Below, in pieces: positions 2,190 to 34,798 of a stretch of 64,000 bases of DNA. The DNA comes from Alphaproteobacteria bacterium (lineage in GTDB: Bacteria; Pseudomonadota; Alphaproteobacteria; Rs-D84): assembly GCA_017409215.1 (NCBI GenBank), contig JAFQTD010000036.1:14038-78037 (forward strand), written 5' to 3'. Below the pieces are notes generated by a model. That model saw only the letters and a program-made list of their open reading frames with translations. It had not been told where the DNA came from and did not search any database. The translations under genes and the position numbers were made by a program. How positions within the stretch are numbered: position 1 is the stretch's first letter; each line of letters opens with the position of its first letter.

Positions 2190-2345
2190 ATCTTATCTTT
2201 TTAACAGGAAATAATCTTATACAACAGCAGTTTTTTTAAACCGCCATTATGGTTAACGGATTTGATACTAGAACATCTTAAAAGCAATTGCAATAATTTT
2301 TTTCTGTTGCTATGCTATGAACAGGACCAAGGGGGGAATTTAAGT

Positions 2346-3701: not shown

Positions 3702-4902
3702 AAACGAACATATTATAAATGAAAATCGTGGCGCAAGTATTATCGAAGTTGTACTTGCAATGGCTATCGTTGCGATGGCATCGCCGTTTGTGTATAATCA
3801 AATTAATCAAACAAACAAGACACTAAAAAATGTTGCGACCGCCAAAAAGATAATATCTGTACGTGATGCCGCACTAAACTTTGTTCGTGTTAATCAAGAC
3901 AAGTGGCCTGATGTTGCACAGATAAAATTGTCTGATGAAGAATTGGCGCTAATATCACCGACTGCTGTTGCAGGTTTTATCGATAAATATGCGCTTACTG
4001 GTATGACAACAACAGATATATATTTAGCATTTGATTTACAAGAATCGCAATTACAGACAAACAATGTTGCAAAGTATATTGGTTCAGACGCAGCGGTTGT
4101 TGGTGGTGATGGTGTTGCGTACAGTGATACATGGGCGGTGTCTGCGCCTGATTTTGCTGTTGGTGATTTGATATACAGGATTTCGCGTGATGTTGTTGGT
4201 GAAGATACAGAAAAATACTTGCATCGTGCGACATCAGGCGAAGATGAATTAAACAAGATGCAACGTGATTTAGATATGGCATCGCATAATATTTATAACA
4301 TTGCAAACCTGTCTGGTAAATCGATTGATGCCAGAAATGCCAGTGCGACCTTTGTTGAAACACCGTTGGTTTCTGCAAACGAAGTCTATTTTTCTGGTGG
4401 TGCAAACGTCGAAGGCCAAAATGTAGAACTGGGTAATGTGCGTGTTTCTGGTGATGTTTCAGGGTTCAGGAATATATATGCAAAAAATTTGAATGGTGAC
4501 AAATATACAACGCGTGGCCATATTATAACCGACCGCGCAGCAATATACGAAAAAGTAAACGTATCACGCGATTTGATACTAAAGTCTGACACAATCAGAA
4601 CAATTAGTGGCTTTACGGGTGTGTCTGTAAATTCTGTATTTACATCCTATGTATCGACCGAAGAAATAATGTTTTACGATAATTTTGGCTTAACTGTATC
4701 TGGCGAGTTGTTAATGTCCACCGTATCGCCAATAAAGATTGGTAATTGGTTGTTTCCATCAACTCGTCCGCCCGAATTTAGTGTGCTTAACCTATCGCGT
4801 GCATCAACACCATCGATGCCAAACAACAATGCATTTTCCGATATATTGCGTGATGGTTGGCAAAAGTCTATAACAATAACAAATGAATTTAACAAACAAT
4901 GA
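3688..4902 (+). CDS. large pseudopilin / minor pilin-like protein
   Basis: 404 aa. N-terminus MAVYKNEHIINENRG|ASIIEVVLAMAIVAMA has a leader ending in Gly, Glu at +5 and a hydrophobic helix. The start overlaps the upstream gene's end by 14 nt, suggesting an operon. Confidence 0.65.
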   Translation: MAVYKNEHIINENRGASIIEVVLAMAIVAMASPFVYNQINQTNKTLKNVATAKKIISVRDAALNFVRVNQDKWPDVAQIKLSDEELALISPTAVAGFIDKYALTGMTTTDIYLAFDLQESQLQTNNVAKYIGSDAAVVGGDGVAYSDTWAVSAPDFAVGDLIYRISRDVVGEDTEKYLHRATSGEDELNKMQRDLDMASHNIYNIANLSGKSIDARNASATFVETPLVSANEVYFSGGANVEGQNVELGNVRVSGDVSGFRNIYAKNLNGDKYTTRGHIITDRAAIYEKVNVSRDLILKSDTIRTISGFTGVSVNSVFTSYVSTEEIMFYDNFGLTVSGELLMSTVSPIKIGNWLFPSTRPPEFSVLNLSRASTPSMPNNNAFSDILRDGWQKSITITNEFNKQ

Positions 4903-6212
4903 TATGTAAAAGAAAAAAATTTTTATTACACAACAGTTCGCGTGGCAGTATGCTGGTTGAATTACTGTTAAGTGTTGCGCTGTGCGCGGTTATAGTTCCA
5001 TTTATCTTTAAATATCAACAAAGTTCTGTTCAGCGTGCGCAAAATTTAAAACTAAGAAATCAAATGACGGAAATTCAAGTTGCGCTGGAACGTTATATCA
5101 TAGAAAACAGGGCGCAACTATTAAACACAATTGGGCGCAATATAACACGTGTAGAACTTAGTGATTTAAGTGAATTTGGTTTACCTGATGCGATTATTGA
5201 AAATCAAGATTTATTTCAACTGCGTGTATTAAAATCCCAAGATTCAACAGGCAGTGCGACATTACAAGGTGTAATTGTTCGTAAATCGGATGAATTAACC
5301 CCATTACGTACACGTGAAATTGTTAATATGTCTGGTGGGACGATGGGGTTTGTTGATGGAACGCATGCGTACGGAACATTTGGTGCCTGGCACGCAGATA
5401 TGGTTGATTTAGGAATAAATCTTGAAAACGGTCTTATTGAATCGACTGCGGTAAATCGTGATAATGCGCTGTATTTATGGCGTGTTCCATCTGACAATAT
5501 ATACGATGCCCAGATGATGTCGCCATTGAATCTTGGTGGGCACGATTTAAAGAACGCAAGTTTTGTAAATGCAAACTTTGTCGAATTTGCTGATTTATTG
5601 ACTTCAGAAAACATAAACACCAACAGTTTTATATTCAAAAACAGAACAACAATAGACAGCGAATACAAGTCAGACATAACAACTGTTTCTGGTACATTGT
5701 CTGCAGACGGAAAAAATATGGAAATAAACGGGTCTTTGTTATTGGACAATTTGGGCAAGTTTTCATCATTAAATGCTAATAATTTATGGGTGACTAATAT
5801 GACCTTGGGTGGCTTGTCTATTAACGACGAAGATTCGCTGGCATTATTGAAAATTAATCAATATCTGGATATGACATCTGGTCACATCAATGCAATGTTT
5901 GTGACGGTTGGCTTTTCTGGTTCGATGACCCCACGTTTGGTTGTATATGACAGGATTGAAGATTCAACAAATTCTGACTACTATTGGGATGCGTCTAACA
6001 GACGGGCTAACTTTATGGACGCCAGCTTTATAGAATTAAATCGTATGGCAGAATTAGCTATGCATTACGAAGGTGACAAAGCGACCGCATCTGGCCGAAT
6101 TTTTGGCGCGGTATCTGCGAACAAGAATGCAACAGTTTCGGATTTTATGAACGCAATCAATAAAATTCAAAAACAAGTACAGGAAAAATATCAGGATTTG
6201 ATTTCGCAATAA
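4899..6212 (+). CDS. large pseudopilin / minor pilin-like protein
   Basis: 437 aa. N-terminus ...SSRG|SMLVELLLSVALCAVIVPF has a leader ending in Gly, Glu at +5 and a hydrophobic helix. It overlaps the upstream gene by 4 nt (ATGA). Confidence 0.65.
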   Translation: MICKRKKFLLHNSSRGSMLVELLLSVALCAVIVPFIFKYQQSSVQRAQNLKLRNQMTEIQVALERYIIENRAQLLNTIGRNITRVELSDLSEFGLPDAIIENQDLFQLRVLKSQDSTGSATLQGVIVRKSDELTPLRTREIVNMSGGTMGFVDGTHAYGTFGAWHADMVDLGINLENGLIESTAVNRDNALYLWRVPSDNIYDAQMMSPLNLGGHDLKNASFVNANFVEFADLLTSENINTNSFIFKNRTTIDSEYKSDITTVSGTLSADGKNMEINGSLLLDNLGKFSSLNANNLWVTNMTLGGLSINDEDSLALLKINQYLDMTSGHINAMFVTVGFSGSMTPRLVVYDRIEDSTNSDYYWDASNRRANFMDASFIELNRMAELAMHYEGDKATASGRIFGAVSANKNATVSDFMNAINKIQKQVQEKYQDLISQ

Positions 6213-18294: not shown

Positions 18295-19578
18295 CTATTG
18301 ATTACCTAAATTTCTGCGTTGTTGCATCTCCATATAATACAAATCATTAAATCGATTTTGTTTCTTTTGTTTGTTCATTAAAATTTGCTGACCTTTTTCA
18401 AACGCCTCTATTTTTGCTTTTGATTCTTCTTTTTTAGGTTCTTTGATTGCTGTTTGTTGTCCATATATTATCCTGTTTTTATGCATATCAGATATTTTGA
18501 TTAATTCATCTGTCGCCTGTTTTTGTACTTTTTCATCGTTGCGCAAATAAGCCTGTTTAATTATACGTCTATAATCGTTTGCTATCCCGTTTGAAATAAG
18601 TCCTTCGCGTGCAGAGCTGCCTATATACCTACTTAGCTTTTCCAGTTCGTATTGAGCAGACCCAAAATCACCATTTGTATTAAATTCATTATAAGCCGCC
18701 ACAAAATCTTTCGCTTTATTAATAACATCTAGAGATTTATATTGAGATTGTACCAACGAAGTTTTATCTAATACATCTAATTGATCGAGCAGTATTTTCT
18801 TTAATCTTTGTGTAGCATCTGTTTTTGATATGCCGCCATCTTTTGCCCAAGACAATATATCTCTGTATTCTTGTTTCATTTGTTCGGAAAGCAAACCTTT
18901 GTCGTTAGCTTCTCTTAGTCCAGCCCACATATTGTCGAAAGAATTAGGATCAAAATCGTTCCCTTTCTTTAAAACATCCGTCAATGCAAATACCGTTTCT
19001 GCCCCCATCTGTTTATCTTGATTCATTTGAGAGGAATTTATCGGTTTTTGCTCTTCTTTTTTAGGTTCCTTGATTGCTGTTTGTTCGATATTAGATAAGG
19101 GCGGTTGTTTGTTTTGATTTTCTTGGTGTTCTTTAATTATATTTTTTTCAACATCAGACATGGGCATCTGCTGTTCTGGAACATGTTGTGTTTTACTTTT
19201 ATGCAGCTCTTGTGTTTCTTTCAAAAAATCAGTTATACCAACATCTAATTTACGCATCGGATCCCACGTATATTCATCGTGCGCATACTCGCCAAGTGCC
19301 GACGATTTTATGTGAGACAAATCATTAGTCATATTGTTATATAATTCATTAAATTTTTCTAATTGAGAATAATCAACCCCGCGTTTAAAGTCTAATTCTT
19401 CATATATAAATTTTGTCAAAGGGTTAAAAGAATTTGCTATAAACTCGTATGCTGTTGCAGCATATGGTTGACCCGATCTTTGCATATGCCCAATCATTTG
19501 TTCTGCTTTTTGTTGTACGCTTAATAGATTCTTAACTATATCATAAAATTTTTCTGCTTGTTCTTGTGATAGTTGCAT
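18295..19578 (-). CDS. hypothetical Lys/Glu/Gln-rich protein with internal tandem duplication
   Basis: Start moved to the ATG at 19578 (RBS GAGAGGAATAAT), because the track start at 19659 lies inside the att-like repeat at 19633-19657. Motif QTAIKEPKKEE occurs twice. The DNA repeat TTTAGGTTC(T/C)TTGATTGCTGTTTGTT sits at 18421 and 19061. Confidence 0.5.
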   Translation of the reverse strand: MQLSQEQAEKFYDIVKNLLSVQQKAEQMIGHMQRSGQPYAATAYEFIANSFNPLTKFIYEELDFKRGVDYSQLEKFNELYNNMTNDLSHIKSSALGEYAHDEYTWDPMRKLDVGITDFLKETQELHKSKTQHVPEQQMPMSDVEKNIIKEHQENQNKQPPLSNIEQTAIKEPKKEEQKPINSSQMNQDKQMGAETVFALTDVLKKGNDFDPNSFDNMWAGLREANDKGLLSEQMKQEYRDILSWAKDGGISKTDATQRLKKILLDQLDVLDKTSLVQSQYKSLDVINKAKDFVAAYNEFNTNGDFGSAQYELEKLSRYIGSSAREGLISNGIANDYRRIIKQAYLRNDEKVQKQATDELIKISDMHKNRIIYGQQTAIKEPKKEESKAKIEAFEKGQQILMNKQKKQNRFNDLYYMEMQQRRNLGNQ

Positions 19579-19684
19579 ATTATTCCTCTCTATCGGTAAT
19601 AATATACCATAAAAAACATAAGTTTTCAAATCGCGCTCCGCCCACTGGCCACAACCCAAAAAAAACCAGTCATACGGCTGGTTT

Positions 19685-20467
19685 TTACTTTACTTTTTGC
19701 GATATGCCTTGCCACATAACTTTCTGTTTCTCGTTTTCAAAAATTGCGATTGGTATTTCATATACGTGGCTTTCAACACCGTTATAAAGTTCTTTGGTTA
19801 GTGCGACGTGCTTTGATGCCGCATTGTGCAATTCTTCAATACGCTTTAGGATATATGTATCGCCTATGTATTCTGGGTATCGTAAATATTCATATTCAAA
19901 TACGGGACTGCCAGTAACGATTTTGTATATCTTGGATATGTCTGTAAAATCAATTTCATCATCACTGTTACGGTTATACCATTGGTAATGTTTGTGGTTA
20001 ATACCTGGGATAGAGTTGATTCTTATATCGTCCAATCGGTCCAAGAATCTTTGTGGATTGATATATTCCAAGTTTGCACGTTTCCCATCAATAGATATGA
20101 CCTTGGTTTGCAAATCCTCAGGCTTGATATAAGTGGGACGATTTGGATTATAAAACATTTTTAAGGTTTCCAGTGTACAGTCTGGCACTTCCAGAATTGT
20201 GTCTTTATTAGTTAATTTATAAGGCACAGATTGCAGATTGATTGTCAGTGGGTGCGGCAAGTTAAAATCCACAGTGTTATAACTTTGAATTACATATTGT
20301 GGCGTACATGTTGTATATGTTAATTTATCCCCAGATTGTGTCAGGAAAACACATTCTGCCCATCTGTATCTGTTGCGGTCGTATTGTGTCCTGTATTCTA
20401 CATTCACAGGACGCGCCATACTTTTATGTTTTTCTAATACATTCGCGTTTAATGGAACGGTTAGCAT
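19685..20467 (-). CDS. hypothetical protein (orphan)
   Basis: 260-aa ORF with no recognisable motif. A terminator-like hairpin AACCAGTCATACGGCTGGTTTTT lies near 19667-19689, close to the stop. Confidence 0.45.
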   Translation of the reverse strand: MLTVPLNANVLEKHKSMARPVNVEYRTQYDRNRYRWAECVFLTQSGDKLTYTTCTPQYVIQSYNTVDFNLPHPLTINLQSVPYKLTNKDTILEVPDCTLETLKMFYNPNRPTYIKPEDLQTKVISIDGKRANLEYINPQRFLDRLDDIRINSIPGINHKHYQWYNRNSDDEIDFTDISKIYKIVTGSPVFEYEYLRYPEYIGDTYILKRIEELHNAASKHVALTKELYNGVESHVYEIPIAIFENEKQKVMWQGISQKVK

Positions 20468-20654
20468 TTTTTTCTCTTATTTCTTTATTCTCTGCCAGTT
20501 CCCCCTGTATGTCGGCATTATAAACAAGGCTGTGCTTATCGCGCAAGTAAAAACACAGTGAAACTTATATTATAAAAATATCAAGACAACATATTACGGA
20601 CTATGCAGAACATTAAACGAAAAAAAGAAGGGCGGTCCCTTCTTTTTCTTCAGC

Positions 20655-21767
20655 CTATACCTTAAAATCTTTGCGTTTACGATTACATTTAGGGTCGGTC
20701 ACACTGGGTGCATTCAGAATAGGCAGATTTTTGGGATTTTGATATTGGCAACCGTGCTCTAAAACAGTCATATCTTGAACGGCCCAACCTCTTCCAAAAT
20801 TATCAAACCCTTTGGCGCTTTTATGCAAGGCCCAACGCTTTGCGGTAATTTGTTGACGTAAATCCGGTCCCTTATAATCCTTGATTGCCTGAAATGTTTT
20901 GGGACCCAAATAGCCGTCTGCGTCTGTTCCGACAATTGATTGCAGTGTTTTTACTAAAACTTTGGCTGTGCCGTTGCCTTGATTAAAGGCAGTTGAAAAG
21001 AAATCGCCACGTAGTGCATCAGGCAGTTGGTTGAATTTATAGTTTTTATAAAAGTGACCATACGCAATATCTTGTGCGTCATGAATAGAAAATTCTGGAT
21101 TGTTTACAGAGTCTGCAAAGTATCTTTCTGTCACACCAAAACAAGTTATTCCCGCCCCATCACCAACATCAGAGCATACAGGTGCTTCGATTCTAAGTTG
21201 TGTAGCCCACGCCTTTTGGAAAGCGGGGTCGTTATGATATTTGTTGTTTGGTGGACAGTACAAATTTGCCACACGACCATCGGTATATTTAATTGCAGGT
21301 GTGCATGACTGATTAAATCTGTTAAAATCTGCCAAGCCAATAGTGTATGCAGGTTGTGCATCCCTGGTGTATTCAATCATATCTTTTATAAAATTATTTT
21401 TGCACGATAAAAAGGTGCTTGTAGTGAACGAGCTATGTCCTGCAAGACAAATTTTCATCAGGTTTCGCGCAGACAAATATCCCTGGTTTTTTGATGCTAA
21501 TTCTTCATACTGCGCAATGGCGTTATTTAAATTCTGTCCTTCGAAATGTTGTGCCAGCGCTACTTCTGCGATGCTTGGGTCGAATAAAATTGCGTTTTCT
21601 CCATCTTTATTAACACCGATATTGTTATCTGGCTGTGGCACGTTTTGCGTCAGTGACAAATCGCCAAGTGAATCCAGTTCGTTTATGATTTCGTTGTGAT
21701 AGGCCAAGGCATTTTGAATCAACAATCCAGACATTGGAATAAAGAGTATTGTAAATATCTTTCTCAT
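20655..21767 (-). CDS. secreted GH108-family muramidase with PG_binding_3 domain and unknown N-terminal extension
   Basis: Start at the ATG at 21767 (AGGAG RBS) gives signal peptide MRKIFTILFIPMSGLLIQNALA. The C-terminal half has the GH108-like block IEAPVCSDVGDGAGITCFGVT and the peptidoglycan-binding block DADGYLGPKTFQAI. The N-terminal ~190 aa are Cys-containing and of unknown fold. Confidence 0.65.
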   Translation of the reverse strand: MRKIFTILFIPMSGLLIQNALAYHNEIINELDSLGDLSLTQNVPQPDNNIGVNKDGENAILFDPSIAEVALAQHFEGQNLNNAIAQYEELASKNQGYLSARNLMKICLAGHSSFTTSTFLSCKNNFIKDMIEYTRDAQPAYTIGLADFNRFNQSCTPAIKYTDGRVANLYCPPNNKYHNDPAFQKAWATQLRIEAPVCSDVGDGAGITCFGVTERYFADSVNNPEFSIHDAQDIAYGHFYKNYKFNQLPDALRGDFFSTAFNQGNGTAKVLVKTLQSIVGTDADGYLGPKTFQAIKDYKGPDLRQQITAKRWALHKSAKGFDNFGRGWAVQDMTVLEHGCQYQNPKNLPILNAPSVTDPKCNRKRKDFKV

Positions 21768-21786
21768 AAAAAAACTCCTGCTTTTT

Positions 21787-22812
21787 TTACAACGCATCAG
21801 AACAATTTTCTGCAACTTCGATTAATTTCTTAATTACACTGATTTGCGATGCGTTAAATGCAGTTGCAACCGCGCTAGAAACAGTTGCGCCTGCAGCCAA
21901 AACATTTGCGGTGGTATTTAAGTTTTTTTCTTTTTGTTCTGCGCCTGTGGTACTATCATTTCGAATGTTTTTGCTGTTTGCAAGTGCGCTGACAATGGTT
22001 CCTGCGCCACCTGTGGTTGCGGTTGCTATTGATGATATTTTTGCACCTGTTGCGCGTTTATCGATTTTCGATAAGTCTATATAGTCATAACCCTCACACG
22101 CTGTGATTACATCAGCGGCATCAAATGTAGGTTCGCCTGAGATTTGTGCTGCCTTATATGATAATCTTAAATCAGACATTGCGTTGATGCAATTTTCAAC
22201 TTGGTCTTTTAATGATTGGTCTGTTTTATTTTTGTCTGCGATAATTGCCCCTGCAACACCTGTCACAGTGGTACCTGCCAACAATCCTGTTCTTAAATTG
22301 CCCAGATTTTTTGATTTTTTCTGCAGTTCATCCGTATTGTCTGTTGCCTCAGCCTGCTTTTCTTCTGAGGTACCAAAATCTTCAAAGTTAAGATTTTCTA
22401 CGTCATTGGAAAGCTGATCCAAAGCACTTTCTGTTGCTTTACCAGCTGTTTGTGTACCTTTAAGTGTTTCTCTGGTTTTCTCCAGTCGTACAGATAATGC
22501 TTTGTCTATACCTGCTTTTTTTATCCCGGCAACTGTTGCGCCGACCCCTAAACCCGTTCCGACACCAGTTATCGCGGTGTTTATTCCGGCCATTTTTTTT
22601 AATTCATCCAGACTATCTTCTATTCCATTGCATTCCCTATAAACAGCGCCCAGCGCTTCGTCCAATGGTAAAGGTTCCGCATCGGCAAAACCAGGGCACA
22701 ACATAACCATAACAACAAAGTGCTTGTAAATTTTCACTGTATTCTCCTTTGCCAAGAATTGTATCATAAATACCAACTTGAAACAAGTGTGAATCTTGTT
22801 TTTTTTTCCCAA
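21787..22812 (-). CDS. secreted Ala/Gly/Thr-rich protein, paralog of 57789-58727
   Basis: Signal peptide ...HFVVMVMLCPGFADA. Shared blocks with the paralog: YxxCxGIxDxLxxLKKMAGINTAIT.VGT..G.GATV.GI.K and KEKNLNT..NVLA......ATA..FNA.QIS.IKK..EVA..C. The true start may be an internal Met near 22767. Confidence 0.55.
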   Translation of the reverse strand: MGKKNKIHTCFKLVFMIQFLAKENTVKIYKHFVVMVMLCPGFADAEPLPLDEALGAVYRECNGIEDSLDELKKMAGINTAITGVGTGLGVGATVAGIKKAGIDKALSVRLEKTRETLKGTQTAGKATESALDQLSNDVENLNFEDFGTSEEKQAEATDNTDELQKKSKNLGNLRTGLLAGTTVTGVAGAIIADKNKTDQSLKDQVENCINAMSDLRLSYKAAQISGEPTFDAADVITACEGYDYIDLSKIDKRATGAKISSIATATTGGAGTIVSALANSKNIRNDSTTGAEQKEKNLNTTANVLAAGATVSSAVATAFNASQISVIKKLIEVAENCSDAL

Positions 22813-23598: not shown

Positions 23599-23621
23599 CA
23601 AACCGCCATTTGGCGGTTTTT
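23599..23621. terminator. bidirectional terminator
   Basis: AAACCGCCATTTGGCGGTTTTTG between convergent genes. Confidence 0.5.
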
Positions 23622-23623
23622 GT

Positions 23624-24694
23624 TTAACCTAAGGCAGCAGTTATTTGGTCTTGCATTTGAAAAGTTCCCAAAACAACCCATGCAATAATTGCTGAAACTA
23701 TTAATATGCCAATACTGTTTAGAATATTTGAAACGCGCTCCATTTTTCTGACGGATTCTTCCAGATAATCGTTTGCAATTTTATTCAAATTTTCATCAAA
23801 CCCATTCATATCTGCATAAATAATCAAGTCGCCAATAATTTCATCATCTGGGAAATTGCGCCCTGTATTTGTCAGCGCAACCCCCAGGTTATCACCATTT
23901 GCGATATAATGAAGCGTGTTGTCCAAAATGCTACGCAGATATCTGTTTGCATTATCTGCCAACAGTCTAAGTGCATCTGGAATTGTTCCGCCGGCCTTAA
24001 CAATTGCCGCCAAAGACATCAGCCAACTAACAGAAACCTGAATTTTATAAACGTTCCAAGGTGGCAGTTTATCAAAAAGTACACGCAATTTGCCAGACCA
24101 GTTTGCCAGACTTAACCAAACCAAGGAAATCACAAGCGCAAAAACAATAAAAAACACATACCAATAATTAATTGATATTTCGGACAGCACAACCAATGAA
24201 CGCGCCATGCCGCGCCAAACAATGGTGTTGCCTGCAACATCGGCCAACGGTGGCACCAGATAAATTCCAACCATAATAATGATACCAAATGTCAGTGCCA
24301 ACAAAAACAGTGGGTATGCGATTGCGCTGGTCATTGCGCGTCTAATCCGACCTGTTCCTTCTACTACGCGCCCAACATTTTCTAGTGCAACTGCCAGGTC
24401 AGATAAATTCCCAGAAGAAACCAACAGTGTTTCATCGGGTGGCACCCATCCACGTGTGACCTCTGAAAAAGTCATACCGCGCTCCAGACCATATTGCCAC
24501 TGTCGCATAACAATTGCGAATGGTTCGCGTGGCTTTGTGCCATTTTTTGATTCGATTGCTTCCAATCGTTCAAGCGCATTAATCAACGTAAAATCATTTC
24601 GCAATAACGAAGCCAACTTGCGACACAGCGCCATACGTTTTTCCGTACTGGTGCGAAAAACCCATTTTGCATACAGTAATTCTAGTTTATTCAT
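23624..24694 (-). CDS. type II secretion / type IV pilus platform protein GspF/PilC family
   Basis: 356 aa with three TM segments and paired cytoplasmic domains typical of GspF. Confidence 0.85.
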   Translation of the reverse strand: MNKLELLYAKWVFRTSTEKRMALCRKLASLLRNDFTLINALERLEAIESKNGTKPREPFAIVMRQWQYGLERGMTFSEVTRGWVPPDETLLVSSGNLSDLAVALENVGRVVEGTGRIRRAMTSAIAYPLFLLALTFGIIIMVGIYLVPPLADVAGNTIVWRGMARSLVVLSEISINYWYVFFIVFALVISLVWLSLANWSGKLRVLFDKLPPWNVYKIQVSVSWLMSLAAIVKAGGTIPDALRLLADNANRYLRSILDNTLHYIANGDNLGVALTNTGRNFPDDEIIGDLIIYADMNGFDENLNKIANDYLEESVRKMERVSNILNSIGILIVSAIIAWVVLGTFQMQDQITAALG

Positions 24695-24695
24695 A

Positions 24696-26330
24696 TTAAT
24701 ATGCCCCAGGTTCGTTTACATATCCGACCCATCGTTCCAGTTCATCTATGCTAATAATTCCCTGCAACATCAATGCTGATGCGGCTTCCTTTAATGTTCG
24801 TCCATTCATATTTTCCAACCAATATCGAAATGCATCGTCGGTTTTGCCTGACAGCGCCAGTCCCAAGAATTCGCTATTTGTAATGATAATTTCACCTGCC
24901 TTAACGCGTCCCAGTGTGCCTGACCCGTTGCAGTGTGGGCAACCTGCGCCACGCAAATATGCCTGACGTACCCCCAGTTCACCATACATTTCCATTATTC
25001 GTTTATATGCGCCGCGTTCTGGATGGTTTTCCAGTGGTTCGCGACAATGCGGGCAAACCTTTTTGAACAGTCGCATAGAAACAAGTCCGCGCATCAAAGT
25101 TTCTTCTTTTAATTTAAATGGCTCTATTCCCAAGTCTAACAAACGCGTCAACGCAGCCATTGCAGAATTTGCGTGCAATGTTGTCCAAACGTTATGCCCA
25201 GACAATGCGCCACGTACGGTCAGTTGTGCCGCGGCCAAGGTGCGAATTTCCCCGACCATCAGTGTATCTGGGTCGCTTCGCAATGCAGCAGCCAATGCTT
25301 CGACATATTTTTCTTCGCGTTGTTCTTCGTTTGTTGTGTTTACCACAGGCATCTGACGTGCGCCAAAAATTTTCTGTTCAACAGGATTTTCGACGGTAAT
25401 CAAATTAATTTCGTAATTTCTCTCTTTTAACATCAAGGACATATTGCGAACAAGTGTTGTTGATTTACCAGAGCTGGTTGGTCCCGCAACAATTACCAAT
25501 CCTGTTGGGAAAGAGCGCATACGTGCCAACAATCTTTGTTCATATGGGCCAAATTCTTGTTCTGTCTTTATGCCCTGTGATGGGTTGTCGTACAGCAGTC
25601 GCATAACGACATATCGGCTGCCAAAAGCGATTGGGTTAAATTGCATACGCACACCCAGCACCCCAGACGGCAGATACAAATCCTTTGTTCCGCGCAATGG
25701 TGTTCGCCCGTCTTTTTGTGCAGATTGATACTCGTTTTGTGCATAGTTTGCATTTGACATATCGGACGAAGCGAATGCAGCACGCACAAAAGATTCACCC
25801 CATTGTGAATTGTATTCCATTACTGGTTGCATACTGCCGTCTATGCGGAAATAGATTGTTGTCTGGTCTGCGACTTCGATATGTACGTCAGAAACCTTTT
25901 GTGATGCAGCCTTGGCGATAATATCGACAAAATCCTTTTGCATCTGATTATCAAAGTCCACACGTGAACGCCCAGTTCCGCCAATGCGCATTTCCTGTGT
26001 TTTGTATATATTAGAAATCAGGCTTAAATCAGAATAAAAAGGTGTGTTAACAACGCGCCCACGTCGTTTTAACAGGTCCAAAAAAGACAAAACACGTCCA
26101 TCATAACGGTGGGTTCGCGATATGATAATTTCACCACCTGTAAAGTACGCAACCAGTCCCTGCGTATCGTGTGGTAATTCAAACGCGGCACCTGTTGCGG
26201 TCAGCAAACGATTTCCATTGGAAAACAGATAATCAATAATGTCTTTGGATTCTGCGTTTTCCAACCCCAACGGTATCGAAGGTTTTTCTGTTGCGTCTAT
26301 GATATCAAGATTTTTGGTTTTTTTTACCAT
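24696..26330 (-). CDS. GspE/PilB-family secretion ATPase
   Basis: 544 aa with Walker A GPTSSGKSTTL and the tetracysteine CPHC...CPHC zinc motif typical of GspE/PilB. An N-terminal domain is present. Confidence 0.9.
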   Translation of the reverse strand: MVKKTKNLDIIDATEKPSIPLGLENAESKDIIDYLFSNGNRLLTATGAAFELPHDTQGLVAYFTGGEIIISRTHRYDGRVLSFLDLLKRRGRVVNTPFYSDLSLISNIYKTQEMRIGGTGRSRVDFDNQMQKDFVDIIAKAASQKVSDVHIEVADQTTIYFRIDGSMQPVMEYNSQWGESFVRAAFASSDMSNANYAQNEYQSAQKDGRTPLRGTKDLYLPSGVLGVRMQFNPIAFGSRYVVMRLLYDNPSQGIKTEQEFGPYEQRLLARMRSFPTGLVIVAGPTSSGKSTTLVRNMSLMLKERNYEINLITVENPVEQKIFGARQMPVVNTTNEEQREEKYVEALAAALRSDPDTLMVGEIRTLAAAQLTVRGALSGHNVWTTLHANSAMAALTRLLDLGIEPFKLKEETLMRGLVSMRLFKKVCPHCREPLENHPERGAYKRIMEMYGELGVRQAYLRGAGCPHCNGSGTLGRVKAGEIIITNSEFLGLALSGKTDDAFRYWLENMNGRTLKEAASALMLQGIISIDELERWVGYVNEPGAY

Positions 26331-26339
26331 AATATACTC

Positions 26340-27053
26340 TTAGTTCCCGTTGCTGACGTTCAATGTCTGTGTTGTACCGTTATCATCGCTAAAGACAACC
26401 CCATCATAGACAGAGATTGATTTTACAGTCAAACCATCCAGCGCTTTTCCAACGGTGATGCGTTTTGTTTGTCCTGACGTCAGGTCTTCTACAGTGGCTT
26501 GTAATTGTCCCCCTGCGCCGACAACATTTACCAATCTGTACTTCTGGCTGATGTCTACACTTGGGGTTTCTGTGTCGGCAACAACTGCCACAGGTCGTGT
26601 GGCATTTTTTTCTGTCTCTGCCAGCCAAGATTCTTTTTCGCGTTCGATACGTGCGGCCTCGGCTTCCAGTTTTGCCTTTTGTGTTTCAATTTCTTGTTGT
26701 TGTTGTTCTGCGCGTCCAGACAGTGTGTCAATTTCCATATGCAGTTTTATTTTTTCTGCTGCAAGTCTGTCTAATTCCAAATCCAACTGTGCGCGTTCTT
26801 TTTCCAATTGCATCAAGATTTTTTCTTGTTCCAAATCTGTGATTTGTTGAAACAACGAACCATCAGGTGAATAGTTTTCGATTGCGTCCATTGCAACTTC
26901 GTCCATTAAATTTTCTTCGACAAAATCACCGTCGCTATCTTCGACGAAAACATCAGCAGATTCAACATAGACATCATCTGCCAGTGCTGGTTGAAGTCCC
27001 CCCAGCAGAACAATCAGTAAAAAACCAAATGACACAATCTTTTTATTTTGCAT
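26340..27053 (-). CDS. secreted coiled-coil protein with PilP/GspC-like C-terminal beta domain
   Basis: Signal peptide, an acidic stretch, a long coiled coil and a C-terminal ~70-aa beta domain (YRLVNVVGAGGQLQATVEDLTSGQTKRITVGKALDGLTVKSISVYDGVV). The start overlaps the GspL-like gene's stop by 11 nt. Confidence 0.45.
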   Translation of the reverse strand: MQNKKIVSFGFLLIVLLGGLQPALADDVYVESADVFVEDSDGDFVEENLMDEVAMDAIENYSPDGSLFQQITDLEQEKILMQLEKERAQLDLELDRLAAEKIKLHMEIDTLSGRAEQQQQEIETQKAKLEAEAARIEREKESWLAETEKNATRPVAVVADTETPSVDISQKYRLVNVVGAGGQLQATVEDLTSGQTKRITVGKALDGLTVKSISVYDGVVFSDDNGTTQTLNVSNGN

Positions 27054-28305
27054 AGATAATCACCTCATAGTTCCAAGTACGGGACACCGCGTCCCAAGAA
27101 GCGCGCATTAAATACACACCACCAAAGTTTTCAAAAGCCTTCATAAATTGCATTGGCACTAATTTTGTTTCTGCGCCAACTTCTACCACATTCACAGTTG
27201 CTGTTTCGACCCCGTTTGTAATTGTATCGACAACAATCTGTGTGTTTAAATCTGTATCAATTCCTTGAAATTGACTGGTTATATCGCGTACAACTGTATC
27301 TGGGTCACGTTCATCTTGCGATGAATACGCATTCAGTGTTGGCAATTTTGCGGACACGCGCAATGTATCTTCGTTGATTTCTTCTACGAATCCGCCCGGC
27401 ATTAATTCTGATGCGATGTTATAAAATTCGACCAATGTTCCAAAAGTACGCCTAAATTCAACAACCGCCTTGTCTTCTTCGCAAGAAACGTAAACTTGAT
27501 TCCATCCAACAACAGGTTGCATCAAAAAAGCCATTGCACGATAGCATATTTCAGCGCGTTCATCTGGCGCAGGTATATTTTCGAACGGCATAACCAGTGG
27601 TGGTGGCGGTGTTTGTTTTTCGATTTCAAATTGTTTATCCAGTTCTTTATTTTTTTCTTCGATTTGTCGTTTGTATTCTGCAACTAGTTCTGGATTAAGT
27701 TCGTGTACCTGTGGACGTGGCATCATCGTTTGTACAATTGAATCACGAAAAATTCCTGTGGCCAACAAGACAAAGCCCCCCAGCAAAATCAATGAAAACA
27801 AACCCGCTCTAAAATGACTAATGGGGCGCAAAAATATACGTGAACGTCCCCCTAATAAGGCGGTCAAATCGCGTTCAATGGCGCGTGGCATCCCCCAAGA
27901 ATCTGGCGCAAAGAATGCCCCCCAATCTGGAATTTCGGTCAGTTTTACATATTCTTCGCGTGCTTCATTCTCTTTATCAAACAGTTTATCTTGCAAGATA
28001 ATGCCATTTCGCGCTGCAACCAAATAAAATCCAGCAGGCACTCTAAAAACAGCAATAAATGATGTGTATTCTGAAAATGCCTCCATAACCTCGGCTGCGG
28101 CGCTGTTCATCCCGACCCGCATTCCTGTTCGGCTGGCCCCCAGACCTACCATCGCGCGGTATTCAACAAACAAATTAAAATGTCGATTAATTCCACGTGC
28201 CAACGAATGCGCATAATTGCGCGCATTAAAAGCAGCGCCAATTGGTTGCCACATCAATCCAACTGCGTATTTTCTGCGATTAATAGTTATTACCTGTCGT
28301 GCCAA
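27043..28305 (-). CDS. GspL-like / PilM-PilN-like bitopic assembly protein
   Basis: 420 aa with a ~170-aa cytoplasmic domain, a single TM (LFSLILLGGFVLLATGIF) and a ~220-aa periplasmic domain. It is first in the operon with the GspE and GspF homologs. Confidence 0.45.
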   Translation of the reverse strand: MARQVITINRRKYAVGLMWQPIGAAFNARNYAHSLARGINRHFNLFVEYRAMVGLGASRTGMRVGMNSAAAEVMEAFSEYTSFIAVFRVPAGFYLVAARNGIILQDKLFDKENEAREEYVKLTEIPDWGAFFAPDSWGMPRAIERDLTALLGGRSRIFLRPISHFRAGLFSLILLGGFVLLATGIFRDSIVQTMMPRPQVHELNPELVAEYKRQIEEKNKELDKQFEIEKQTPPPPLVMPFENIPAPDERAEICYRAMAFLMQPVVGWNQVYVSCEEDKAVVEFRRTFGTLVEFYNIASELMPGGFVEEINEDTLRVSAKLPTLNAYSSQDERDPDTVVRDITSQFQGIDTDLNTQIVVDTITNGVETATVNVVEVGAETKLVPMQFMKAFENFGGVYLMRASWDAVSRTWNYEVIIYAK

Positions 28306-29797: not shown

Positions 29798-30394
29798 ATG
29801 AAGAAAAAAATTAAAGGTGCATTAAAGCGTGTGAAAAACATAATAACGAATCCAAAACGTTATTTTACCAAAATTGTTGCAGATGGTAATATGGAAGAAT
29901 CTATGTTGCGTGCATTTTTATATGGTCTGCTTGGCGGATGTTTGGTTTTACTTATTCGTTTAATTGGTGGCGCGACGATTACTGTTGGGGCAATATTTAC
30001 TGCGATTGTTGTCGTGCCTGTCTTGGCGGTTGCATTATTGTTTGTTTTTGGTGGTCTAATGATGCTTATATCTGAAATAACAGGTGGCGAACGCGACTGG
30101 GAAATTGCGATTAAGGGTCTGGCATCGATATTTTTCATTTATCCCTTAATTTTAGTTTTAAATGCATTGGCATTTAATTGCACGTCTATGTGGGTTATCA
30201 GCATAATGGTCGACTTGTATGTATTGTTTTTGTTTTACAATATTGCGGTTTACTGTATGCGTGGCAAGAAAAGCAACGTGATAATAGTAATATCTGTGTT
30301 GTTATTATTTATGTTTACAGTATATGCGACAGATTATCGTATCGGATGGTTTATGTTAAAGAATACTGGCGCGACACTTGCGTGTTTGGTCTAA
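29798..30394 (+). CDS. Yip1-like multi-pass membrane protein
   Basis: About 198 aa with 4-5 TM helices after a basic N-terminus. RBS AGAGGA. Family assignment is tentative. Confidence 0.45.
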   Translation: MKKKIKGALKRVKNIITNPKRYFTKIVADGNMEESMLRAFLYGLLGGCLVLLIRLIGGATITVGAIFTAIVVVPVLAVALLFVFGGLMMLISEITGGERDWEIAIKGLASIFFIYPLILVLNALAFNCTSMWVISIMVDLYVLFLFYNIAVYCMRGKKSNVIIVISVLLLFMFTVYATDYRIGWFMLKNTGATLACLV

Positions 30395-30501
30395 GGATAT
30401 CGCCCCGTTCTGGGGTGATTTTTTTTGAAAACATTCTGTTGTACTTTTGTTGCTACGCGCGATATATATATGATATAATAACATCGTTATTAACCAAGAG
30501 A

Positions 30502-31230
30502 ATGTATATGCCAAAAACGAAAGAAAACATTATATCAATGAAGCATATAAACAAGAGTTTTCCGCTAGAACTTGGCGGTGAACAACAGGTGTTATTTGAT
30601 ATCAATTTTACAATAAAATCGGGCGAATTTGTTGCAATTATGGGGCCATCTGGTTCTGGTAAATCAACTTGTATGAACATAATTGGTGCGTTGGATACAC
30701 CGACCTCTGGTGTGTACGAACTTTATAATAGTGATGTCACAGGTCTGACAACGGATGAACTTGCGATATTTAGAAATGAATACATTGGCTTTGTTTTTCA
30801 GCAGTTTAATTTATTGCCAAAGCGCAGTGTTCTGGACAATGTAATGTTGCCATTGATGTATCGTGGGTTGCCCATGCATGAACGTGTTCAACGTGCGCGC
30901 GAAATGCTAAGGCGCGTTGGATTGGAAAATTTTGAATCGTATTTGCCGACACAATTATCCGGTGGTATGAAACAGCGTGTTGCGATTGCGCGTGCGCTGG
31001 CGGGTAATCCAAAGTTGATATTGGCGGACGAACCGACTGGTGCCTTGGACAGTAAAATGGGGAATGAAATTTTAAAATTCTTTAAACAATTAAACAAGGA
31101 TATGGGTATAACGATTGTTATGATTACGCACGAATTTGATATTGCAAAGTATGCAGACAGACTGATTCACATTCGCGACGGTCGAATAAACTATGATGGC
31201 CCTGTGCCACGTAATGATAACAACTTATAA
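30502..31230 (+). CDS. ABC transporter ATP-binding protein (MacB/LolD-like)
   Basis: Start at MYMPKTK. Walker A GPSGSGKST, ABC signature LSGGMKQRVAIARA and Walker B ILADEPTGALD. The track ORF starting at 30178 is an upstream in-frame extension that I reject. Confidence 0.85.
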   Translation: MYMPKTKENIISMKHINKSFPLELGGEQQVLFDINFTIKSGEFVAIMGPSGSGKSTCMNIIGALDTPTSGVYELYNSDVTGLTTDELAIFRNEYIGFVFQQFNLLPKRSVLDNVMLPLMYRGLPMHERVQRAREMLRRVGLENFESYLPTQLSGGMKQRVAIARALAGNPKLILADEPTGALDSKMGNEILKFFKQLNKDMGITIVMITHEFDIAKYADRLIHIRDGRINYDGPVPRNDNNL

Positions 31231-31243
31231 CAAAGGAACAAAA

Positions 31244-32461
31244 ATGACGTTTAATGATATTTTGAAAGAATCCTGGTTATCGATAAGCGGCAACAAAATC
31301 CGTTCATTTTTAACGGTGCTGGGGATTATTATTGGTGTTATGGCGGTTGTTATAATGGTTGCGGTTGGCGAAACTGTGCAAAAGTCGATTACAGACCAGT
31401 TTTCATCATTGGGAACCAACACTATAATGATACGTGCGGGCGCTGCGCAACAGGCAGGTGTCAGAACAGGCAATCGTCATACATTGACCATACAGGATGC
31501 AGAATTTATTGGTAAATTGCCGGATGTGATGGCGGTCACTCCTGTTCAAAATGGTGCTGCTCAGGCGATTTATGGTAATAAGAACTGGGGTACAGCAATG
31601 GTTGGTGTTTATCCGGATTATTCCATTGTTCAAAATATAGAAATAGAACATGGTACATTTTTTGATATGTCTGCAGTTCGTAATGCATCGACGCACGCGG
31701 TAATTGGGCCAGAAACAGCCGAAGAGCTGGGGTTGCCAAAGAATCCTGTTGGTGAAGTTATCAGGATACAAAATACACCATTTGTAATCGTTGGTATCAC
31801 CAAGGCCAAAGGCGACAGTGCAATGGGCAGTCAAGATGATATGATAATTATTCCAATAACAACATTAAAAAAGCGTTTACAAGGTTCACGTTTCCCAAAT
31901 TCTGTTGGTATGATTGCGATAAAGTTATTACCTGATTCTGATAATAATCTGGCCATAGAACAGATGACGGCCCTTTTGCGTCAGCGTCACAGACTAAAAG
32001 AAGATGCGGTCGATGATTTTCAGATTATGGATATGAAGCAAATTATGGAAACGATGACCACTGTGACAGGGTACTTAAAATTGTTGTTGATTGCGATTGC
32101 TGCGGTGTCACTGTTGGTTGGCGCGATTGGCATTATGAATATGATGCTGGTATCTGTGGCAGAACGCACGCGTGAAATCGGCATACGCAAGGCGATTGGT
32201 GCGCAAGAAAAAATGATAATCATTCAATTCTTATCAGAATCTGTATTAATTTCATTTATTGGTTCTATGATTGGTCTGGTAATTGGTGTTGGGCTGTCAC
32301 AGGGTGTCGGTCGTTTTGTATTGGGGTATAATGTTCCATTCAGTATGTGGCCGGTTGTATTATCAGTATCTGTAGCGGTAATTGTTGGATTGTCATCTGG
32401 TGTGATGCCTGCGATGAAGGCGGCAAAACTAAATCCGATTGACAGTCTGCGATATGAATAA
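31244..32461 (+). CDS. ABC transporter permease, FtsX/MacB family
   Basis: MacB-type topology: one TM, a large periplasmic domain and three C-terminal TMs. ATG at 31244 after RBS AAAGGAAC. Confidence 0.85.
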   Translation: MTFNDILKESWLSISGNKIRSFLTVLGIIIGVMAVVIMVAVGETVQKSITDQFSSLGTNTIMIRAGAAQQAGVRTGNRHTLTIQDAEFIGKLPDVMAVTPVQNGAAQAIYGNKNWGTAMVGVYPDYSIVQNIEIEHGTFFDMSAVRNASTHAVIGPETAEELGLPKNPVGEVIRIQNTPFVIVGITKAKGDSAMGSQDDMIIIPITTLKKRLQGSRFPNSVGMIAIKLLPDSDNNLAIEQMTALLRQRHRLKEDAVDDFQIMDMKQIMETMTTVTGYLKLLLIAIAAVSLLVGAIGIMNMMLVSVAERTREIGIRKAIGAQEKMIIIQFLSESVLISFIGSMIGLVIGVGLSQGVGRFVLGYNVPFSMWPVVLSVSVAVIVGLSSGVMPAMKAAKLNPIDSLRYE

Positions 32462-32539: not shown

Positions 32540-34798
32540 CTATTTGATAACCAATTCCTTTACAGTTTTTGTTTTTGCATCATATACCTTTGGTTTCCCA
32601 GCATATCGCAATGCATAATGATGTTTTGGAATCATATATTCTGGAATTGGTGATGCTGCACCCATATCAACCTTTGCGGCCAGTGCCTTTTGCACCGCTG
32701 TTTCGCGATAGAAGTACCATTCACCATCCGCTTCAATCGGCAGGTTATAAAATCCTTGGAACAACACCAGCTGTTTTGCTTTTTTCAACGTCATCAAATC
32801 CATTGGACTGAACAAGTCTTCTTCTTTTTCAACTTCGACATCCTTGCCGTCCGGACCTTTTTCTTTCTTTTTAACCTTCTTTTTACCAATCATACGTGTA
32901 AATCTTTCTGCGGTTGCTGGGTCATTCACACGCAATATAACCTTGGCGGCTGTATTTGCGATGATTGTATCTGCGGCCTTGTCGCCATATTTTTCTTGAA
33001 TCTGACTGATGTCCTGACCTACAATCAGATAAGACACTTTTTGTCCACGACCAACAGCTGGCCCACGAATGATTGCTTCCAGCTTATTCATTGTTGGCAT
33101 TTCGTCCAATACGAACAGGGCAGGGTATGGTCCTAATTTTTGTCCGTTATTAATTGCCTCTGGCTTATTTGCAATCAGGTAATTAGACAGCAGTTCAATA
33201 AACATACTGGTTATCGCTGCAAATGCAGGTGCGTCTGCTACATTCATTGCCAGATATATTGTAATCGGCTTCATTTTGCCATCTGTTGGGTCAACCATAC
33301 CGCGCATATCACCAAAGTGTAAATCAGAATGTCTGGTGTGTTTATTAACAGCCGGATGTCTAAAAATATTCAATCCTGCATTCATTGTTGACATAACGGA
33401 CCCACGTTCTTTATCTGGTGTATTCGCAAGGTTAATCAGCGCGGATACAGAATCACTATCGTATGCATACAATTGTGCTTCTTTGATTGCCTCGTTTAAA
33501 AAGTCCTTCATTGGGTCTGCCATCATAACCATCTGGTCGCCTTGGTTTTTGCGTTCCTCTAAATCTTGTGCGACCTTGATTTGTCCTTCGACATACCATG
33601 CCAAGAACATTGGTATTGATGCTTCGGCCCCATGCCATTCCTTGGGCAATCCACCCCATGTACCAACGTGGACATAGTTATTTATATTCAGCTGTTTATT
33701 TTGCAACAGTGCCATTGCCGCATATGCATTTGGATCAGTGTTCATTGTCATATAATAGTCCATCAGGACAGCTGCATCTTGTTCATCAAATGTTCCGGTT
33801 GCCAGCCTGTTATAGAAATAATCATTCGCCTTGGCGCGTTCTACCTTGGAAATAATAAAGTTAATAAATCCTGTCAATGCGGCACGTGCGGTATTTGACC
33901 AGTGTGGGTCTTTGGCGTTTTCTTCAACAATAGAATTAACAACGACCTGAATATATGTACTGCGCCCCTCTGGATTCGGTGGCAGATTTTCAGGTGACAA
34001 CGGATTCCACGCAGGATAATAGATTCCTTTTTCTGGTTCGTCCGGTGCGGCCCAGTTCATAATAAACACCGGTCCAACTGTTGAACGATAACCAGATGTT
34101 TGGTAAATCAATTCTGGTTTTGGGTCGTTTACAATCATTGACACCGTATCGCATTCCAAGATTGTTGGGATAACGACCCCTTGTGTTTTACCAGTACCTG
34201 CGGGCGCCAACAGCAATGCAGACATACATTCGTCCATTTTAAGTGGTGTTTGCTTGCCTTTGTATTTGAAATACCCCAGCACCATCATAAAACCACTGAA
34301 CAGTCCCAATTTATTCTTGTGGTCTTGTGCCATTTTCATAATATCTTTTTCATTTGCCTTGCGTGATGTTTTTTCATCAAACTTGTCCTTGCTGTGTGGG
34401 TTAAATTCATCTGTCATTGTCGCATCAGATAAAAAGAAATACCCAATAATCGGCAACAGCGGTGTTATGCACGCGATATCAGGGCGCATCAGACAACGTA
34501 TCAGCCAAGACGGGATTTCTGCCAACACAGACAATCCGCCACTGGACAACACATTTTCAAAATATAACAAGAACCACTTGTTTGTTGCGGGACCCCAACC
34601 GTACCGCCACAAGTGTTCTATTGGGAACGCGCACGCAAACATAAATGCCGCGATAATCCATATTAACAAGGCCCATCTGATGTTCCAGAATTCACGTGCC
34701 TGTGGGGTTTGTTCGTGTTCTTTATATTTCTTAGAACTAAAAATCCCCAGTCCTTTTCCCTTGCCCGATGCTGATAAAAAGTTGAATTTTACTGCCAT
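32540..34798 (-). CDS. type IV secretion system coupling protein (VirD4/TraG family)
   Basis: 752 aa. An N-terminal TM anchor and the TraG/VirD4 P-loop region (LLAPAGTGKTQGVVIPTILE). The C-terminal region is conserved (YLIVGQDISQIQEKYGDKAADTIIANTAAKVIL). Confidence 0.8.
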   Translation of the reverse strand: MAVKFNFLSASGKGKGLGIFSSKKYKEHEQTPQAREFWNIRWALLIWIIAAFMFACAFPIEHLWRYGWGPATNKWFLLYFENVLSSGGLSVLAEIPSWLIRCLMRPDIACITPLLPIIGYFFLSDATMTDEFNPHSKDKFDEKTSRKANEKDIMKMAQDHKNKLGLFSGFMMVLGYFKYKGKQTPLKMDECMSALLLAPAGTGKTQGVVIPTILECDTVSMIVNDPKPELIYQTSGYRSTVGPVFIMNWAAPDEPEKGIYYPAWNPLSPENLPPNPEGRSTYIQVVVNSIVEENAKDPHWSNTARAALTGFINFIISKVERAKANDYFYNRLATGTFDEQDAAVLMDYYMTMNTDPNAYAAMALLQNKQLNINNYVHVGTWGGLPKEWHGAEASIPMFLAWYVEGQIKVAQDLEERKNQGDQMVMMADPMKDFLNEAIKEAQLYAYDSDSVSALINLANTPDKERGSVMSTMNAGLNIFRHPAVNKHTRHSDLHFGDMRGMVDPTDGKMKPITIYLAMNVADAPAFAAITSMFIELLSNYLIANKPEAINNGQKLGPYPALFVLDEMPTMNKLEAIIRGPAVGRGQKVSYLIVGQDISQIQEKYGDKAADTIIANTAAKVILRVNDPATAERFTRMIGKKKVKKKEKGPDGKDVEVEKEEDLFSPMDLMTLKKAKQLVLFQGFYNLPIEADGEWYFYRETAVQKALAAKVDMGAASPIPEYMIPKHHYALRYAGKPKVYDAKTKTVKELVIK

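Follow-up and report, generated by a model that had tools for sequence, protein, structure and literature searches.

A two-gene cassette in the Rs-D84 lineage of Alphaproteobacteria couples a putative membrane partner to Sec-exported proteins with a shared N-terminal domain and exchangeable payloads

In Neisseria, MafA forms an outer-membrane oligomer without which the Sec-exported MafB, made up of a conserved N-terminal domain and a variable toxin, does not cross the outer membrane (PMC7738311). Here, we describe a two-gene cassette, in the following called A-B, in a stretch of 64,000 nucleotides from an alphaproteobacterium of the Rs-D84 lineage (GenBank assembly GCA_017409215.1, contig JAFQTD010000036.1, positions 14,038 to 78,037; the whole stretch is called the window, and all coordinates refer to it). 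The cassette is present as A1-B1 at locus 1 and as A2-B2 at locus 2. The MafA/MafB pair is its closest precedent and appears to be analogous, i.e., the same logic is followed without homology, without a lipoprotein partner and without an immunity gene. In both systems the gene of a ~34-kDa partner is located directly upstream (PMC7738311), the downstream protein combines a Sec signal with a conserved domain for recognition at the N-terminus and a C-terminal module that varies, several cognate pairs are encoded per genome and the partner is neither an Omp85 nor a TpsB protein. However, Pfam gave no match to the MafB domain DUF1020 (PF06255) for B1, B2, 44 big and 22 short B proteins, and A is unmatched in Pfam and NCBIfam. 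MafA was described as a probable lipoprotein of mixed alpha/beta structure (PMC7738311), whereas A has an AxA-type cleavage site without a lipobox cysteine and is predicted to be all-helical, which sets the two apart by description. Moreover, A-B has no MafI-like immunity gene, and its payloads are wall hydrolases or giant proteins instead of the MafB toxins.

The features of type Vb two-partner secretion, i.e., an Omp85/POTRA barrel and a TPS domain, are absent among the Pfam domains of A and B, and A is predicted to be all-helical. The payload spectrum of A-B (muramidase, glucosaminidase, L,D-transpeptidase-like, protease) is like that of the Tae, Tge and Tlde1 effectors of the type VI secretion system (T6SS) and that of the wall-modifying arsenal of Bdellovibrio. 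Unlike the T6SS effectors, the A-B payloads would be delivered by Sec and a private partner, with neither a T6SS nor immunity genes. The alpha-pore-forming toxins ClyA, Hbl and Nhe share with A-B the organization in Sec-exported helical components encoded by several genes, and the big B proteins show a resemblance to the head of Hbl L1. However, this match covers ~90 residues only, a full-length match in fold or sequence is missing and A has four separate segments instead of one head. As a functional analogy, the choline-binding proteins of Streptococcus pneumoniae carry one anchoring module on many functional domains, including wall hydrolases and large surface proteins; there, the anchor is choline on the teichoic acid of a Gram-positive wall and not the product of an adjacent gene.

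The sequence comparisons firmly support a conserved bicistronic cassette in which the gene of a membrane-type, probably disulfide-bonded partner A precedes that of B, a Sec-exported protein combining an adaptor domain with an exchangeable payload. In the set of 492 open reading frames (ORFs) of the window, the two ORFs of locus 1, 21787-22812 and 20655-21767, both on the minus strand, were confirmed at these positions. The preliminary description had reported the first of these as a secreted, Ala/Gly/Thr-rich protein of 341 aa. Position, composition and secretion signal stand, while the TTG start at 22812 is likely too early. The homolog P0001, which is 95% identical to A1, and the remaining family members are ~316 aa long, and the sequence AAGGAG is found 6 nt upstream of a GTG at position 22737, so that A1 probably starts there and comprises 316 aa (21787-22737, minus strand). 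The spacer to B1 (21768-21786) follows the TAA stop of A1 and is exactly 19 nt long, as had been noted; it contains an AGGAG Shine-Dalgarno sequence (21775-21779) 7 nt before the ATG of B1. B1 (20655-21767, minus strand) is an exported protein of 370 aa consisting of a signal peptide, a domain that we call B-N, a GH108 muramidase domain and a probable PG_binding_3 domain. Directly 3' of its stop lies a terminator-like hairpin (20620-20649, minus strand; 13-bp stem, T run) that ends the bicistron. A second terminator-like hairpin (23600-23619) is located 3' of a pilR-like gene upstream of A1, and a tRNA-Glu gene on the opposite strand lies between the pilR-like gene and A1. Due to these flanking elements, A1-B1 looks like a transcription unit of its own, i.e., an independent two-gene operon.

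The arrangement recurs at 57789-61984 on the plus strand, as previously noted. A2 (57789-58727, 312 aa) and A1 are paralogs with 46% sequence identity (E 6e-65), and they are the only A copies within the window. B2 (58724-61984) is an exported protein of 1086 aa and belongs to a class that we call big B; with the ATG at 58724 as its start it shares an ATGA with the A2 stop, while a start at 58706 would give an overlap of 22 nt. The N-termini of A1, A2, B1 and B2, as read from the sequences, are all type-I signal-peptide-like with an AxA-type site at the end.

The linkage of A and B is kept outside the window. In ~90 loci of other genomes, A is followed by a same-strand ORF with a signal peptide, B, wherever downstream DNA exists, and 84 of the 90 A-B junctions have a 4-nt (ATGA) overlap. 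The lengths of the B proteins are bimodal with ~270-500 aa and ~850-1800 aa. The preliminary description had proposed a conserved upstream partner with a variable payload, reminiscent of polymorphic toxins, and had suggested a search for paralogs and their downstream genes; the partner-payload part is borne out in these loci, while the polymorphic toxin remains an analogy, since no immunity gene follows B. Neither of the two outcomes that it had named as refuting, i.e., unrelated N-terminal domains of the downstream proteins and paralogs without linkage to secreted proteins, was obtained. A word-indexed homolog search gave only three hits for B1 and 17 for B2, and the size of the B family was therefore judged from the loci.

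A weak local similarity between the N-termini of B1 and B2 had been noticed before. A direct BLASTP comparison of B1 and B2 does not reach significance (best E 1.2), and for this reason a profile hidden Markov model (HMM) of B-N was built from the mature B N-termini of other genomes, leaving out the signal peptides and all sequences of the window. Among the 492 ORFs of the window this HMM detects B2 (E 3e-37) and B1 (E 2e-12) only, with the next ORF at E 0.41. The two N-terminal regions are thus significantly related by profile though not by pairwise comparison, and the weak similarity turned out to be the core of a real shared domain. In B1, B-N covers residues 54-156 (21300-21608, minus strand); in B2 the domain with an adjoining conserved region spans residues 24-178 (58793-59257, plus strand). 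The conserved core reads "..dL..vC.aaG....C..F", and the peptides NLMKICLAGHS and QLWFICKEGGLS of the B1/B2 pair fall on it. In the AlphaFold2 (AF2) model of B2, B-N forms four helices (residues 28-96) with a predicted local distance difference test (pLDDT) score of ~65-90.

Among 4309 ORFs in the flanks of 86 loci, B-N was found 83 times, and in 83 of 83 cases in the ORF directly downstream of A. In the reverse direction, motifs of the big B proteins were used to fetch 30 metagenome loci: a canonical A is encoded immediately upstream in 23 of them, the contig end cuts two, two have no A, and in the remaining three the B start is overlapped by a different ORF, which is Gly-rich, encodes 318-382 aa and carries a signal peptide. 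Furthermore, the A clades track the B type, as expected for cognate pairs. The three non-canonical upstream ORFs (L112:3775-4827, L121:3784-4932 and L113:2500-3456) come from other metagenomes, precede shorter B-like proteins of ~570 aa and have two Gly-rich segments (e.g., KQLKTGLTTAGIGAAAGIIGNQIINK). They are not detected by the A-family HMM and may represent a partner family that is distant from, or analogous to, A.

As judged from its sequence, B1 has as its payload a GH108 muramidase that is probably active and is joined to a peptidoglycan-binding module; the enzyme would cut the glycan strands of a cell wall. The region covers residues 177-333 (20769-21239, minus strand). Residues 194-264 match the Pfam family GH108 (PF05838) with 24.0 bits, above the gathering cut-off of 21.2. 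The PG_binding_3 domain (PF09374), which had been named together with GH108 before, reaches only 19.2 bits and stays under its cut-off of 24.6; however, the alignments to the solved GH108 protein NMB1012 (2IKB; residues 201-331, E 1.4e-10) and to the "secretion activator protein" 7DNP (E 9e-7) run through residues 270-333 and thereby cover this module. Residues 177-333 furthermore match PHROG 315 "endolysin" (E 4.8e-21). B1 is homologous to these GH108 relatives and retains the Glu at the domain start. The Pfam match begins at this residue, Glu194, which lies where the catalytic Glu of the family is expected. The spacing E194...D203...T208...G211 fits the GH108 motif E-G-G-Y ... D-x-G-G-x-T-x-x-G-I, although the residues following Glu are not GG, and R-[IL]-E is kept in two aligned GH108-type B homologs (L087, L090). 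While the solved relatives are single-module proteins of ~170-180 aa, B1 adds a Sec signal, B-N, a Cys-containing tail and a paired A gene.

GH108-type B proteins are rare. The word-indexed search found three clusters, and they follow A proteins of the A1 clade. One type of short B payload is homologous to the N-terminus of phage Gp29 and to the endolysin 7Q47 (E 7e-12 and 3e-6), i.e., to a lysin of the Enc34 or virion type. Other short B proteins carry a GH73 glucosaminidase, a YkuD/Tlde1 domain (with a Tlde1 domain match in L041) or a trypsin domain.

In 64 of 92 modules, B is a giant, mosaic, Cys-rich protein. No Pfam domain was found in 44 big B proteins, B2 included, and NCBIfam, PHROGs and PADLOC gave no match for big B either. 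The N-terminal half of B2 (58793-60262, plus strand) is Cys-rich; 15 cysteines are invariant and three are nearly invariant across the first ~520 residues of the 44 proteins. The AF2 model of B2 is good for residues 25-400 only (pLDDT 75-92), and Foldseek gave no significant match to the B2 fold in PDB or BFVD (E >=0.13); glyoxalase/VOC-fold proteins recur among the non-significant matches, which is a hint only. A hydrophobic Gly/Ala-rich hairpin follows at residues 437-490 (60032-60193, plus strand) with Kyte-Doolittle values of up to 2.1. The positions 425-517 of the big-B profile match the hydrophobic head of Hbl L1 (7NMQ) with 24 bits (E 1e-4), while 300 composition-preserving shuffles gave a mean of 0.5, a standard deviation of 5 and a maximum of 16 bits. 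This hints at a resemblance that exceeds composition and is not a family assignment. Further features of the big B proteins are a long coiled coil, a Pro-rich linker, a second hydrophobic segment and, in some members, a C-terminal domain. In B2 this last domain of ~180 aa (61436-61981, plus strand) is common to a subset of big B proteins only and has no match among PDB sequences. B2 is 64-68% identical to P0281/P0282 in the last 250 residues and ~30% identical in the first 600, which points to a mosaic history of B2.

At 90% identity the A family falls into at least 933 clusters, and at 50% identity it is covered by 431 representatives. Most members have ~300-330 aa, besides fragments and a few variants of up to 708 aa. 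Among the matches listed, a Pfam domain is recorded for none of 120 representatives, and the family has no match in Pfam, NCBIfam, PHROG, PADLOC or PDB sequences, with the A profile giving coiled-coil noise only against the latter; an hhalign comparison did not relate A to big B. Moreover, A is essentially absent from 2.9 million viral contigs, in which one marginal match was found. AhlB, YaxAB and ClyA appeared among the non-significant fold matches of the low-confidence A model, and nothing was drawn from them.

A1 contains 12.9% Ala, 8.2% Gly and 9.4% Thr, and A2 16% Ala. The signal peptide of A1 (residues 1-20, MKIYKHFVVMVMLCPGFADA|EP; 22678-22737), read from the sequence, keeps its position in the family alignment. 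The best conserved portion of A consists of four segments of 22-25 residues, which carry no charge and consist to 57-69% of Gly, Ala, Ser and Thr. In A1 these are residues 49-73 (22519-22593; uncharged, 61% Gly/Ala/Ser/Thr, most positions at least 90% conserved), 147-168 (22234-22299), 231-254 (21976-22047) and 273-296 (21850-21921), all on the minus strand. Four cysteines, C36, C183, C214 and C312, are invariant in the family alignment. If the four segments span a membrane and the signal peptide is cleaved, all four cysteines would be located on one extracytoplasmic side, which would give a coherent topology. Segments 1 and 2 are joined by a variable, coiled-coil-like loop, which reaches 350-450 aa in some relatives. 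P0219, P0252, P0261, P0262 and P0271 are family members of 580-708 aa; in P0219 and P0261, the sequences of which were read, this loop has grown into a coiled coil of that length. The expansion points to a hairpin stalk that varies in length and has segments 1 and 2 at its base.

In total, 308 confirmed A copies are present in species-representative genomes. Among 80 copies listed, the carriers are metagenome-assembled genomes (MAGs) labelled Ca. Enterousia, Alphaproteobacteria, Rickettsiales or uncultured proteobacterium from animal and human guts. Several copies per MAG and tandem A-B-A-B arrays occur. The tandem arrays in L007, L009 and L020 have mixed payload types, e.g., a trypsin module behind one with an Enc34-type lysin, and in L007 the trypsin gene is duplicated. 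Enterousia was placed in the order Rs-D84, and its genomes have ~0.75-1 Mb and lack respiration and standard transporters (PMC12306168). A lifestyle as a partner-dependent (obligate) symbiont or parasite was predicted; these bacteria are widespread in animal and human guts and are thought to live off other cells (PMC12306168).

We regard locus 1 as one copy of a cassette that is specific to this lineage. For the cassette we tentatively favor, with slightly less than even confidence, that A serves in a membrane as a partner for docking or translocation, which would recognize B-N and then export the payload, display it or hold it in position at the envelope. A would be Sec-exported, disulfide-bonded and all-helical, its four Gly/Ala/Thr-rich segments might form two membrane-seated hairpins, probably in an oligomer, and the Cys-bearing helices would constitute a head that faces the periplasm or the outside. 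B would be synthesized in step with A via the ATGA overlap or the tight Shine-Dalgarno site and would be exported by Sec as well. Subsequently, the helical, Cys-containing B-N of ~90 aa could dock on the extracytoplasmic head of the cognate A, which would hold the payload at, or pass it to, the cell envelope or surface. At locus 1 this payload would be the GH108 muramidase and at locus 2 the giant Cys-rich protein with its toxin-like hydrophobic hairpin. The lysins and toxin-like giants may then act on the wall or membrane of another cell, resulting in breach or remodelling at the interface. Since the lineage was predicted to be a partner-dependent symbiont or parasite, a use at the interface to another cell is thought most likely. 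We infer in this way that A binds B and is located in a membrane, that the payload is exported or displayed and what its target might be.

Several observations weigh against this docking or translocation role. With Kyte-Doolittle values of 1.1-1.7, the A segments are only marginally hydrophobic for membrane spans. AF2 gives an all-helical model of A with a mean pLDDT of 55; the Gly-rich segments are below 50, only the Cys-bearing helices are modelled with confidence, and Foldseek found no significant structural neighbor of this model (E >=0.29). B-N is apparently lacking in the trypsin-type B proteins, which still follow an A. The activities of muramidase, glucosaminidase, L,D-transpeptidase and serine protease also belong to the normal housekeeping repertoire of the periplasm. 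The 1:1 coupling of A and B suggests a stoichiometric partner and not a catalytic channel. Finally, in 61 non-redundant complete loci no immunity gene or other third gene is conserved after B, and the downstream neighbors differ in nearly all; four of the 61 share a small overlapping ORF downstream of B. A missing immunity gene is unexpected if the wall-degrading B enzymes are weapons, because they pass through the producer's own periplasm.

As the main rival, it is possible, if doubtful, that A instead is an inner-membrane tether or regulator with four spans for periplasmic enzymes that act on the cell's own wall in growth, division or the insertion of a pilus or type IV secretion system; at the same level of doubt, B1 would be a housekeeping or pilus-associated muramidase and big B a structural protein of the envelope. 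B has a Sec signal only and would reach the periplasm by default, where the predicted topology also places all A cysteines; the payload activities are classic housekeeping functions on peptidoglycan and proteins, no immunity gene follows B, the lysin type varies by genome as in non-orthologous replacement, and translational coupling suits a 1:1 complex. Moreover, locus 1 lies only 0.9 kb from R64-type pilO/P/Q/R genes, and PilT of the R64 operon is a lytic transglycosylase. However, this linkage is not kept, as pil genes are not the neighbors of the GH108 modules in L087 and L090, and in the window a hairpin and the tRNA gene separate pilR from A1. Furthermore, a tether for own-wall enzymes fits less well to the 64 of 92 modules that carry giant mosaic proteins with a toxin-like hairpin instead of enzymes and to lysin domains of phage endolysin and virion-lysin types, and several copies in a genome of <1 Mb are many for housekeeping. 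Alternatively, A might be a periplasmic chaperone or immunity-like inhibitor that binds B-N or the whole B and keeps it harmless until release via a pilus-like (type II/IVb) machinery or vesicles. The upstream position and the ATGA coupling would ensure that A is made before B and in the same quantity, no separate immunity gene is present, the A subtypes match the B types, and GspE/F-like and PilO/P genes are encoded in the window. We nevertheless regard this as unlikely: four long, uncharged and extremely conserved segments are unusual for a soluble chaperone, the variants with a coiled-coil insert of 350-450 aa look structural, and A cannot inhibit active sites specifically because it is conserved while the catalytic domains of B differ.

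A membrane protein followed by an endolysin-type enzyme with overlapping genes, together with payloads of the phage lysin type, also resembles a domesticated phage lysis cassette or a type 10-like holin/endolysin release, in which A as a holin analogue would permeabilize the membrane and B as the endolysin would release contents or large proteins. GH108 enzymes do serve as "secretion activators", as 7DNP was deposited under this name and TtsA of Salmonella is an example. This explanation is very unlikely, given that A has a cleavable signal peptide and 316 aa, unlike small holins, that it lacks a PHROG match and is nearly absent from viral contigs, that no phage genes surround locus 1 or locus 2 and that most B proteins are not lysins; moreover, B needs no holin because it carries its own Sec signal. 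A conserved N-terminal domain joined to C-terminal parts that vary and include a Tlde1-like domain, the mosaic history of B2 and copies that adjoin recombinases would fit a classical polymorphic toxin for competition among related strains. We consider this the least probable of all, since the 61 complete loci contain neither a conserved downstream immunity gene nor orphan cassettes, and no known toxin-trafficking domain was detected.

A reading that goes in the direction of docking and translocation, and that we regard as rather improbable, would make A the pore-forming subunit of a new minimal translocation pathway, i.e., an alpha-helical oligomer of the glycine-zipper type that recognizes the B-N tag and moves folded or partly folded cargo. 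If so, lysins, proteases and Cys-rich membrane-active proteins of 100-200 kDa would cross the cell's own outer membrane or enter the envelope of a partner cell, and the cassette would be the main host-interaction or feeding apparatus of the Rs-D84 lineage.

The cassette is a concrete candidate for the interaction machinery of these bacteria, as it is present in multiple copies, encodes some of the largest proteins of these genomes and couples a private partner protein with wall-cutting enzymes and toxin-like giants. With A as a docking or translocation partner, it would also be a second, unrelated case of the MafA/MafB logic, i.e., of a small dedicated partner with a Sec-dependent, N-terminally tagged cargo. 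The concept of a dedicated partner and a tagged polymorphic cargo is already known; the components are new. No description of the A or the B-N family was found in four domain libraries or in the literature mentioning Enterousia or Rs-D84. With A and B-N as two new families, cargo can be found by position alone.

Conserved synteny around the cassettes was looked for and not found; the chromosomal positions differ between genomes, and only a few of the loci share ComEC/TruA. Some big-B genes are accompanied by a small ORF of 92-102 aa that lacks a signal peptide (MIIQDTRKYREYIKE..., MIVTDESVYLNYVKD...). It overlaps the big-B stop in L049, L083 and L029, lies 22 nt after it in L039 and may be a third component there.

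Upstream of locus 1, positions 23624-28305 (minus strand) contain a run of R64-type type IVb pilus or type II secretion system-like genes that encode PilO (PF06864), PilP (TIGR03021), a GspE/PilQ-like ATPase and a GspF/PilR-like membrane protein. In the mSphere paper on the Rs-D84/Enterousia lineage, type IV pili are mentioned only for UBA9783, another lineage. Two ORFs downstream of B1 (18295-20467, minus strand) encode proteins of 260 aa and 454 aa, the latter being rich in Lys, Glu and Gln, which are unmatched in any library. They stay with A1-B1 in the close contigs L088 and L089 and not in other genomes, and the terminator-like hairpin lies between them and B1. Three consecutive overlapping ORFs of 479, 404 and 437 aa at 2262-6212 (plus strand) have no Pfam match at E 1e-5. 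At 32540-34798 (minus strand) a VirD4/TraG-type coupling protein of type IV secretion with 752 aa is encoded (PF02534, E 3.5e-51) in this genome of ~1 Mb, adjoined by LolCDE-like ABC genes (30178-32461). Finally, behind locus 2, a Cys-containing ORF of 168 aa without a Pfam match is located at 63481-63987 (minus strand), and in L018, L027 and L055 homologs that share 62-65% identity with it are found downstream of big-B genes, at distances from a few hundred bases to ~1.5 kb.

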